A stretch of 34,631 nt of DNA from Minisyncoccia bacterium (GTDB lineage: Bacteria > Patescibacteriota > Minisyncoccia > Phycocordibacterales > CAIZLB01), in assembly GCA_041752275.1 (NCBI GenBank), contig JBGSHK010000019.1, positions 1 through 34,631 of the forward strand. Reading direction: 5' to 3'. Below are positions 7,188 to 25,227 of the stretch, one piece after another; positions within the stretch are counted from its first letter, which is position 1; every line of letters starts with the position of its first letter. The notes beneath the pieces are model-generated. The model had not been told where the DNA came from and made no database searches. It saw nothing but the letters and a program-made list of their open reading frames with translations. A program made the translations under genes and the position numbers.

Positions 7188-8387
7188 ATGGCAACAGCAG
7201 CATTTGATAGATCAAAAACACACGTGAACGTTGGAACAATCGGACACGTTGATCACGGTAAAACAACATTAACAGCAGCTATCTTAAACACACTTTCAAA
7301 AAAAGGTAATGGTTATGATGCAAAGGTTCTTGATATCGCTCATATCGATAAAGCTCCAGAAGAGAAAGCTAGAGGTATTACTATCTCTCTTGCTCACTGT
7401 GAATACGAAACTCCAAACAGACACTACGCTCACGTAGACGCCCCAGGTCACGCCGACTATATCAAAAACATGATTACAGGTGCAGCTCAAATGGACGGTG
7501 CCGTGCTAGTTGTTGCTGCTACTGATGGACCTATGCCACAAACTCGTGAGCACGTTCTATTGGCAAAACAGATTGGTGTACCAAATATCCTTGTTTTTAT
7601 GAACAAATGTGACATGGTTGATGATGCAGACATGTTAGACTTAGTTGAAGAAGAGATCAGAGAACTACTAACAAAGAACGGATTTGACGGAGTAAACGCT
7701 CCTGTTATAAGAGGATCAGCTTTGAAAGCTTTAAACTCAACAGATGTAAACGATGAATGGTCACAAAAGATCATAGATCTTGCAGATGCTATTGACTCAT
7801 TTATCCCAACTCCAGTTCGTGAGACTGATAAACCATTCCTTATGCCTATAGAAGACGTGTTCTCTATCGAGGGACGTGGAACTGTTGTTACAGGACGTAT
7901 CGAGAAAGGTATTATCAAAGTAGGTGAAGAGATCGAGATCGTTGGTCTTAAAGATACTGTTAAGACAGTTGTTACTGGAGTAGAAATGTTCAACAAACAA
8001 CTATCAGAAGGTATGGCTGGAGACAACGCTGGTCTACTACTAAGATCTGTTAAAAAAGAAGATCTATCAAGAGGTCAAGTTCTTGCAAAACCAGGTTCAG
8101 TAACACCTCATACAGAGTTTGAAGCTGAAGTTTATATCTTGAAGAAAGAAGAAGGAGGAAGACATACACCATTTTTCTCAGGTTACAAACCACAGTTTTA
8201 TGTTAGAACTACTGACGTTACAGGAGAGGTAACATTAGAAGAAGGTAAAATGGTTATGCCTGGAGATACAGTTACTTTCAAAGTTAAGCTTGTAGCCCCA
8301 ATCGCCCTAGAAGATAAACAAAGACTTGCTATCCGTGAAGGAGGTAAAACTGTTGGAGCTGGAGTTGTTACAAAGATTGTAAAATAG
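7188..8387 (+). CDS. tuf: Elongation factor Tu
   Basis: [57 protein letters not shown]. Confidence 0.99.
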
Positions 8388-24875: not shown

Positions 24876-24895
24876 AATTTTATTTTACTACGTTT

Positions 24896-24982
24896 GGACT
24901 CGGTCCTTACAGGACCAGTTGAGGTTTTATATTTTTTCGAATTTTTCAAATTCTCAAAAATCCATAAAACCTTTTCGAGCCC
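24896..24982 (-). ncRNA. Unclassified tRNA-linked structured element, copy 2
   Basis: The minus strand reads GGGCTCG-AAAAG-GTTTTATGGA-TTTTTGAG-AATTT-GAA-AAATT-CGAAAAAAT-ATAAAACC-TCAAC-TGGTCCT-GTA-AGGACCG-AGTCC, colinear with copy 1. Confidence 0.65.
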
Positions 24983-25019
24983 CGCACGAAAGTGCCATTT
25001 GGCACTTTCTCTTCGTTGT

Positions 25020-25040
25020 ATAAAAACCTCTGGTTTTTAT
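25020..25040 (-). terminator. Terminator after tRNA-Leu
   Basis: ATAAAAACC-AGA-GGTTTTTAT, a perfect 9-bp stem. Confidence 0.7.
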
Positions 25041-25042
25041 TG

Positions 25043-25125
25043 TGCCTCAGGCGGGACTCGAACCCGCACGACATTGCTGTCAAAAGATTTTAAGTCTTTC
25101 GTGTCTACCATTCCACCACCAAGGC
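25043..25125 (-). tRNA. tRNA-Leu (TAA)
   Basis: Acceptor GCCTTGG/CTGAGGC, loop CTTAAAA, long variable arm GACAGCAATGTC, T arm GCGGG-TTCGAGT-CCCGC, A73. Confidence 0.93.
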
Positions 25126-25153
25126 GTATTTATGCTTTTTTTAAAATAGCGTG

Positions 25154-25227
25154 AGGCGTAGGCCGGATTTGAACCGGCGAATATCAGTTTTGCAAACTGC
25201 CGCGTTAGACCACTTCGCCACTACGCC
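25154..25227 (-). tRNA. tRNA-Cys (GCA)
   Basis: Acceptor GGCGTAG/CTACGCC, loop TTGCAAA, T arm GCCGG-TTCAAAT-CCGGC, U73. Confidence 0.93.

Follow-up and report, generated by a model that had tools for sequence, protein, structure and literature searches.

The closest published objects to the element described here appear to be the transfer RNA (tRNA)-linked repeats (TLRs) of Escherichia coli, which were reportedly described by Egan and Landy in 1978 and by Rudd in 1999. TLRs are gene-less units of ~100-180 bp that lie behind tRNA or ribosomal RNA (rRNA) genes, and their last 18-19 bp are identical to the 3' end of the gene upstream; one to five occur per locus, in tandem and often between two terminators, and what they do is for the most part unknown (Stenum et al. 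2021, PMC8144298). RrA/B/F, three of these units, are read-through small RNAs (sRNAs) (PMC8144298). Here, we analyzed a 34,631-nt stretch of DNA (the window, i.e., the whole stretch at its full length) from contig JBGSHK010000019.1 of a Minisyncoccia bacterium. The window carries two copies of a structured element: copy 1, behind tRNA-Asp on the plus strand, and copy 2 (core 24896-24982), on the minus strand between tRNA-Leu(UAA) and yihA. We consider it quite likely that both belong to a Patescibacteria-wide family of gene-less insertion modules of ~150-230 bp that sit directly behind tRNA genes, and that copy 2 is an old, partly decayed member.

The family was collected with R1, a covariance model trained on copies 1 and 2, and a pattern scan of one-genome-per-species contigs (fixed pattern TTTTYGAG, RAAAAT, ACTG and GTA), and its counts are lower bounds. 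The covariance-model search, which an earlier reading of the window (the original prediction) had proposed, returned at least 107 matches at E < 1e-5 in at least 86 sources; in the window, R1 found copies 1 and 2 and nothing more. A second model (R2), built from 86 copies from other genomes only, detected copy 1 with 105.7 bits (E = 4e-24) and copy 2 with 90.3 bits (E = 3e-20), and gave no further match elsewhere in the window. Among the matches listed, a same-strand tRNA gene ends 17-260 nt upstream in 84 of the 107 copies, and where this distance is below 130 nt (76 copies) its median is 60 nt; for copy 2, the model match begins 54 nt past tRNA-Leu(UAA). At least 18 tRNA isotypes serve as hosts, tRNA-Thr included, and the downstream neighbors (yihA, a membrane protein, tRNA-Asp, tuf) are unrelated; the family is not tied to particular isotypes or to variable gene cassettes. 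The claim that no copy follows tRNA-Thr holds within the window, but the related contig L193 has one behind that tRNA.

All labelled positive sources among the matches listed are Patescibacteria and the others are unlabelled; taxon labels are as deposited and noisy. Contigs L193 and L208, for example, are labelled 'uncultured Candidatus Saccharibacteria' and are syntenic with window positions 3400-8200 at 75-92% nucleotide identity, while the other relatives of the window are labelled Parcubacteria, so the class labels of these assemblies are unreliable. Pattern-only matches from Pelagibacteraceae, Bacteroidota and others had no model match, viral contigs yielded five chance matches to the first pattern and no model match, and a metagenome scan by YihA returned distant relatives alone (at most 51% identity) and no cores. 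An exact look-up of the YihA of the window gave no record. With Rfam 15, only tRNAs reached the gathering score for either copy; at E up to 10, scattered microRNA and sRNA matches fell far under the cut-offs and no ribozyme (hammerhead, twister, hatchet and pistol included) or riboswitch family fit. Hammerhead, k-turn and sarcin-ricin layouts were compared by eye and rejected, as their junction strands and bulges do not fit. We found no description of the family in the literature.

In the layout that we propose, the intact tRNA would be followed on its own strand by an A/T-rich hairpin that often resembles a terminator. Next would come the acceptor 3' strand in antisense (decayed in copy 2), a variable hairpin (H0) and a CGUG linker, then tRNA nt 54-65 in antisense (12 nt), a conserved three-way-junction core and tRNA nt ~55-73 in sense, after which the native flank resumes. 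The tRNA-Leu/yihA locus is organized as follows.

25153-25227, minus strand: tRNA-Cys, directly upstream of tRNA-Leu(UAA) (ARAGORN).
25042-25125, minus strand: tRNA-Leu(UAA), host tRNA of copy 2 (ARAGORN; Rfam tRNA, 57.9 bits).
25020-25040, minus strand: A-run, 7-bp A/T-rich hairpin and T-run, ATAAAAACC-AGA-GGTTTTTAT, at the left end of the insertion (sequence).
25010-25019, minus strand: linker ACAACGAAGA (sequence).
24988-25009, minus strand: hairpin H0, GAAAGTGCC-AAAT-GGCACTTTC (sequence and RNAfold).
24985-24988, minus strand: conserved CGUG linker, 3' of H0.
24974-24985, minus strand: antisense arm GCGGGGCTCGAA, the 5' strand of P1, which complements tRNA-Leu nt 54-65.
24903-24973, minus strand: element-intrinsic core (fold, covariation and R2).
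24964-24971 with 24923-24930, minus strand: P2, preceded by J1/2 AAG, in the core (RNAfold).
24956-24961 with 24931-24936, minus strand: P2b, then a tandem GA/GA loop, in the core (RNAfold).
24948-24953 with 24939-24944, minus strand: P2c, then J2/3 ..ACUG, in the core (RNAfold).
24911-24917 with 24901-24907, minus strand: P3 with a GUA loop, in the core (RNAfold).
24896-24902, minus strand: CGAGTCC (tRNA-Leu nt 56-62), what survives of the sense copy of the tRNA 3' end; it serves as the 3' strand of P1.
24876-24895, minus strand: AAACGTAGTAAAATAAAATT, the decayed rest of the duplicated tRNA tail (comparison with L091-L094 and L086/L087).
24875, minus strand: ATG of yihA, 20 nt past the end of the core.

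The original prediction had placed the first hairpin at 25040-25020 of the minus strand, H0 at 25009-24988 and an 87-nt core after these, and all three were found there, the core at 24982-24896. It had also called the first hairpin a terminator. A hairpin is indeed present and resembles a weak terminator, but it was not called by a consensus terminator scanner because it has only two G-C pairs and the scanner needs at least three. In the locus comparison described below, this hairpin is missing from the empty sites of L091-L094. The sole terminator-like call in the region was H0 on the plus strand (24988-25009; nine pairs, five of them G-C, and a T-rich tail), which could act as a stop for transcription coming from the yihA side. 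Linker ACAACGAAGA matches the antisense tRNA acceptor at ~5/14 bases, plus G-to-A changes, when read by eye; it may be the decayed remains of the tRNA-Leu acceptor 3' strand in antisense, although our confidence in this assignment is low. The copy 2 insert is ~165 nt long and contains no open reading frame (ORF).

RNAfold folds both copies as the identical three-way junction, formed by the closing helix P1, a long P2-P2b-P2c arm interrupted by a GA/GA internal loop, and hairpin P3, whose loop reads GUA (z = -6.2 and -6.3; 0/200 shuffles as stable). The four stem swaps relative to copy 1 on which a claim of covariation had been based are present as written. The outer-stem swap (GGACTT/AAGTCC versus GGGCTC/GAGTCC) is not independent covariation because it follows tRNA-Asp versus tRNA-Leu, i.e., this stem is copied from the tRNA; covariation does hold for the three inner stems, in the comparison of the two copies as well as across at least 105 distinct copies. 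In the model-fitted alignment of these sequences, standard pairs occupy 93.2% of alignment cells (69.9% when shuffled), both-side changes occur in 27/29 pairs (shuffled mean 20.5), and the covariation score is 0.589, versus about 0.08 with partners slid by 1-3 columns. Inner helices contain G.U 94 times and A.C 23 times, where composition predicts 1.5 to 1, and this excess of G.U over A.C therefore indicates that the fold is selected on the tRNA-sense strand. In the 19 copies found outside the search pattern, UACUG and the GUA loop are still near-invariant and the P2b/P2c region is looser. These results show that what is conserved in the core is its structure, as formed by the tRNA-sense strand.

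By sequence alone the likeness of copies 1 and 2 is modest, and the structure-aware tests are decisive. In the alignment and shuffling test that had been proposed, the likeness was clear when the arms were included (local alignment z = 5.8; 1/2000 dinucleotide shuffles as good) but weak for the inner core alone (z = 2.7; 43/2000). The latter value is what favors chance likeness of terminator-like or A/T-rich intergenic regions, or recent local duplication, as an explanation. We give this explanation virtually no credence, as the foreign-built R2 detects copy 2 with high significance and more than 100 homologues lie in a like context. Furthermore, recent duplication is excluded because the inner cores are just 60% identical yet keep compensatory pairing, which bears out the earlier view that the resemblance reflects selection rather than recent duplication.

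The P1 strands are antisense and sense copies of the adjacent T-loop/T-stem, from tRNA-Asp in copy 1 (TTCAAGTCC) and tRNA-Leu in copy 2 (TTCGAGTCC). The copy 2 arm GCGGGGCTCGAA agrees at 11/12 bases with the expected GCGGGACTCGAA (complement of tRNA-Leu nt 54-65). Across 84 copies among the matches listed, the antisense arm fits the tRNA beside it better than it fits other isotypes (median 12 versus 6.5, p = 8e-39), as does the sense arm (median 11.75 versus 5.5, p = 3e-33). The start of the sense copy falls in nt 50-65, for the most part in the T-loop, and the copy stops precisely at the tRNA end in 41 of the 50 clear cases. Fresh family members have sense tails of 19-23 nt; copy 1 keeps 15/16 bases of its tail, and in copy 2 only 7 nt (CGAGTCC) are left, the remainder having decayed. 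On the other side of the core, fresh copies carry an antisense copy of tRNA nt 66-73, then H0, then the CGUG linker. Gapped realignment revealed conservation of both P1 strands (0.8-0.98); in old copies, it is the copy of the acceptor tail that has decayed. An apparent outlasting of the sense arm by the antisense arm, which would have hinted at pairing with the tRNA, was rejected as an artefact of ungapped offsets, since conservation is equal after gapped realignment. These data show that the arms derive from the local tRNA.

H0 is found in nearly every member, with a variable stem and a loop that is often of the AAYWGYUU type, and a tRNA origin for H0 was rejected, as identical H0 sequences lie behind tRNA-Asp and tRNA-Arg. 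Among the matches listed, the CGUG linker is kept in 65-76% of copies, 82% of spacers fold well below shuffles (z < -2), and a terminator-like hairpin with a T-run lies between the tRNA and the arm in 38/76 copies (3.1 in shuffles).

Cores are shared between different tRNAs. For 52 copies among the matches listed, the nearest-neighbor inner core is at least 85% identical, and in 43 of these 52 the neighbor sits at a different tRNA. Inner cores that are 96-100% identical occur within one assembly at tRNA-Lys/tRNA-Arg, tRNA-Asn/tRNA-Lys and tRNA-Leu(UAA)/tRNA-Leu(UAG), and in each pair the arms and tails differ precisely where the tRNAs differ. Since point mutation cannot re-match the arms with the core unchanged, the target must have been the template for the arms, either during insertion or in a later conversion. 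One conceivable route is that the antisense arm is a working address, i.e., that the core either scaffolds RNA- or single-stranded DNA-guided integration or is itself catalytic, and that it pairs with any tRNA T-arm, inserts and re-templates its arms; we consider this route very unlikely.

We gathered orthologous loci via relatives of YihA. The tRNA-Leu/yihA junction is occupied in these relatives as follows.

L091 (YihA 88% identical to that of the window): empty; tRNA-Leu, AC, yihA ATG.
L092-L094 (YihA 85%): empty, like L091; confirmed with R2.
L086 (YihA 95%): an old copy, shared with the window.
L087/L088 (YihA 90%): a new copy at the tRNA with a perfect 21-nt sense tail, and a deleted remnant of the old copy.
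L089/L090 (YihA 90%; the L089 YihA protein is that of L087): a different new copy and a complete old copy.

Among close relatives, this junction thus carries 0, 1 or 2 copies, and the younger copies at the tRNA-Leu site carry the full TCGAGTCCCGCCTGAGGCACA. Two junctions that are empty in the window are filled in relatives: tRNA-Met/tRNA-Asp in L114 and L156, where the native flank (TTGAGAC...) restarts right behind the sense tail, and tRNA-Thr/tuf in L193. The L193 element (6709-6880) has a 32-nt direct repeat (CGATTCTGGTCATTGGCTC+AGATTATTTTTAT) that extends 13 nt beyond the tRNA end, and the direct repeat of L087 reaches 8 nt beyond it; most other copies stop at the tRNA end. These comparisons show that the element is an insertion which orthologous sites have acquired, the most recent copy being the one closest to the tRNA.

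Such presence and absence at orthologous sites contradicts the stably inherited RNA gene that the original prediction had implied. In the corresponding alternative, the element would be a non-coding RNA gene passed on vertically, or else a leader that regulates the downstream gene in cis (yihA here), and its likeness to the tRNA would be coincidental. The strong, covarying fold would suit this explanation, as would the location of copy 2 directly upstream of yihA and of copy 1 upstream of another gene. However, the junction is empty in relatives with 85-88% identical YihA and holds 0, 1 or 2 copies in close strains, the downstream neighbors are unrelated, the arms track the adjacent tRNA, and no Rfam family corresponds to the element even at E up to 10. 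We find this alternative extremely improbable.

Two further observations were made in these relatives. In L089 (978-1076), the older of two tandem elements has a ~40-nt extra insert inside P2, and this insert includes GTACCTTGGTGGTATG, which resembles the tRNA-Leu 5' end (GCCTTGGTGGTGGAATGG). In L091 (1885-4188), the threonyl-tRNA synthetase call is 767 aa long, versus 591-595 aa in relatives, and its N-terminus matches a PemK/MazF toxin domain; this is either a true fusion or two merged gene calls.

A direct copy of the tRNA 3' end at the far border of an insertion also recalls tyrosine-integrase islands, and the family could be a mini, cargo-less form of these, in which crossover takes place in the T-loop, the incoming DNA brings a replacement 3' end for the tRNA, the sense copy on the right is the original end that was displaced, and an integrase of the chromosome or of a phage acts in trans. 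A regenerated target together with a displaced fragment is the hallmark used for mapping islands (Islander, PMC4383910). In our family, tRNA identity starts within nt 50-65, mostly in the T-loop, and continues to the tRNA end, the right-hand copy is adjoined by native flank, the newest copy is nearest the tRNA, and the 3' strand of P3 resembles the 5' strand of the T-stem, as a second core-type arm would. An island would nevertheless leave the covarying three-way-junction core unexplained. There is also no integrase gene inside or near the element, classical attP sites are without an antisense target copy, and a single core, with its two arms re-matched each time, can use at least 18 isotypes, unlike integrases of fixed specificity. 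A miniature island thus strikes us as an unlikely, if credible, origin.

Copy 1, which lies behind tRNA-Asp (3445-3519), retains more of its tRNA-derived ends and is organized as follows.

3520-3688, plus strand: copy 1 as a whole, with its core at 3591-3675.
3521-3556, plus strand: terminator-like hairpin.
3556-3565, plus strand: antisense acceptor copy TGCGTGGTGA, upstream of H0.
3566-3585, plus strand: H0.
3586-3599, plus strand: antisense arm, which reads GTGA-TGGACTTGAA.
3600-3666, plus strand: core.
3667-3688, plus strand: sense tRNA-Asp tail, TTCAAGTCCTATTCAC(TCTGTA); the sense copy was mapped at 3666-3684.

The sequence GTAGTAAA, which follows both window copies, was rejected as a conserved feature, as it is not kept family-wide and is best read as decayed tRNA tail. 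Further upstream on the same strand, a tRNA-like gene lies at 3229-3300, just upstream of tRNA-Met (Rfam tRNA, 43.2 bits; not called by ARAGORN); its anticodon loop, CTCATAA, carries CAU, and its D-arm region is unusual.

At the empty sites (L091 10030-10040; L092 9995-10005; L094 295-305), the ATG of yihA lies 2-3 nt past tRNA-Leu (…GAGGCACA-AC-ATG). Here yihA probably shares a transcript with the tRNAs, from which 3' processing of the tRNA would free a near-leaderless messenger RNA (mRNA). At filled sites, a -10-like TAAAAT or TGATAAAAT lies 6-7 nt ahead of the ATG, and in the window TAAAAT is found 6 nt before the yihA ATG; a consensus promoter scanner made no call at this TAAAAT. We infer that the decayed tail supplies this -10-like box, consistent with a leaderless yihA mRNA. 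The insert would have cut yihA off from the tRNA-Leu transcript that it once adjoined, and the decayed tail appears to be a new promoter for the detached gene.

The arrangement at yihA also bears on a possible function at the RNA level, which is compatible with insertion, mobility then merely spreading the module. Read-through from the tRNA promoter would yield a transcript whose P1, by mimicking the acceptor and T-arm, lets tRNA-end enzymes release a stable small RNA and remake the downstream 5' end. The fold is selected on the transcribed, tRNA-sense strand (G.U:A.C 4:1), unpaired UACUG, the GUA loop and the GA/GA loop are strongly conserved, both strands of P1 are kept while the acceptor tail decays, and the sense tail stops at the tRNA 3' end in the great majority of clear cases (41/50). 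Because yihA begins 2-3 nt past tRNA-Leu at empty sites, tRNA-end processing would already set that mRNA. In E. coli, RrA/B/F arise when transcription continues past the first terminator and are processed beside repeated 3'-end sequence (PMC8144298). However, a terminator-like hairpin separates the tRNA and the element in half of the copies, single-stranded DNA hairpins tolerate G.T wobble too, and any helix would serve processing, which leaves the match of the arms to the adjacent tRNA unexplained. An RNA-level function is thus a serious possibility that we hold only tentatively.

In our preferred reading, in which the family consists of insertion modules, a trans-acting enzyme would place the core in a tRNA gene, at the segment that runs from the T-loop to the 3' end. 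This target segment would occur a second time as the sense tail, whether through displacement of the original end or through target duplication, and be inversely copied as the antisense arm. The antisense and sense arms would then close the fold, and selection would see the folded top strand, as single-stranded DNA or as read-through RNA. Several points weigh against this reading. No enzyme, excised form or transcript was seen: neither a recombinase domain nor an integrase gene turned up in the copy 2 insert or the neighboring ORFs (Pfam), and a search for RNA-sequencing runs that contain the stretch returned none. The insertion scars of copy 2 itself are inferred from relatives because only 7 nt of its sense tail are left. 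Identical cores in one genome could have arisen via gene conversion rather than recent transposition, and one such pair has differing H0 hairpins but an identical core. The pair counts come from a model-fitted alignment, and 88/107 copies were preselected by the pattern, which inflates the apparent conservation of TTTTYGAG, RAAAAT, ACTG and GTA. Finally, the repeats of L193 and L087 overrun the tRNA end by 8-13 nt, which plain duplication of the tRNA end only does not predict.

If the insertion reading is true, Patescibacteria carry a very widespread small element that falls outside known RNA families and transposon classes, in which a structured core settles behind any tRNA gene, wearing inverse and direct copies of the tRNA end. 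Such units would mimic tRNA 3' halves, terminators and promoters, and could explain much of the repeat content near tRNA genes in these tiny genomes. The target-templated arms would point to an unfamiliar copy or insertion pathway. We know of no cognate transposase for the family.

Like miniature inverted-repeat transposable elements (MITEs) and REP/PATE-type non-autonomous elements, members of the family are short, gene-less, structured, multi-copy and strain-polymorphic; unlike these, their terminal inverted sequences are taken from each target rather than being element-intrinsic, and the duplicated target is about 19-20 nt long and ends at a gene boundary. Going by their description, integron attC sites and cassette arrays share strand-specific conservation of a single-strand fold rather than of sequence, as well as growth of arrays by insertion at a single set position, with the latest unit closest to the anchor. 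The family differs from these in having no IntI, attI or cassette ORFs (only nearby ORFs were scanned for recombinases), in its tRNA-copied arms, and in a three-way junction with conserved loops in place of an imperfect hairpin with extrahelical bases. Tyrosine-integrase islands and prophages in tRNA and transfer-messenger RNA genes (T-loop sublocation) likewise target the 3' part of the tRNA, leave the gene intact and place a partial direct copy of its 3' end at the far border (PMC4383910). In contrast to such islands, the unit described here is 150-230 bp long without integrase or cargo, and has an antisense target copy, at least 18 isotypes per core and a covarying three-way junction.

The likeness to TLRs extends further. 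As with TLRs, the Patescibacteria units are gene-less and lie directly behind tRNAs, and fresh members end in a 19-23 nt tRNA copy, which has decayed in copy 2. In the E. coli K-12 tyrT-tyrV locus (L215, NC_000913.3 1286000-1287800), each full 178-bp unit has, in addition to the known 19-nt sense tail, the sequence GGGGAAGGAT, an exact 10-nt antisense of tRNA-Tyr nt 59-68 (0/1000 shuffles), which pairs with the sense tail and closes the unit in the predicted fold. Unlike the Patescibacteria core, the tyrT unit folds no more stably than shuffles (z = -0.9), and R2 found no core homology at the tyrT-tyrV locus (best match 7.1 bits, E = 0.5). The rrnB TLR unit (L216) is without an antisense arm, unlike our family, and we thus rejected this arm as a general feature of TLRs, whose hosts also belong to a different phylum. 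Should the very unlikely address-arm route nevertheless be true, the family would be a programmable mobile element without a protein gene, the antisense arm at tyrT would put TLRs, described in 1978 and mostly unexplained, in one class with it, and the question would become testable in E. coli K-12. More broadly, the family offers a comparative handle on the TLRs of E. coli, with which it has the tail rule and, at tyrT, the antisense arm in common.

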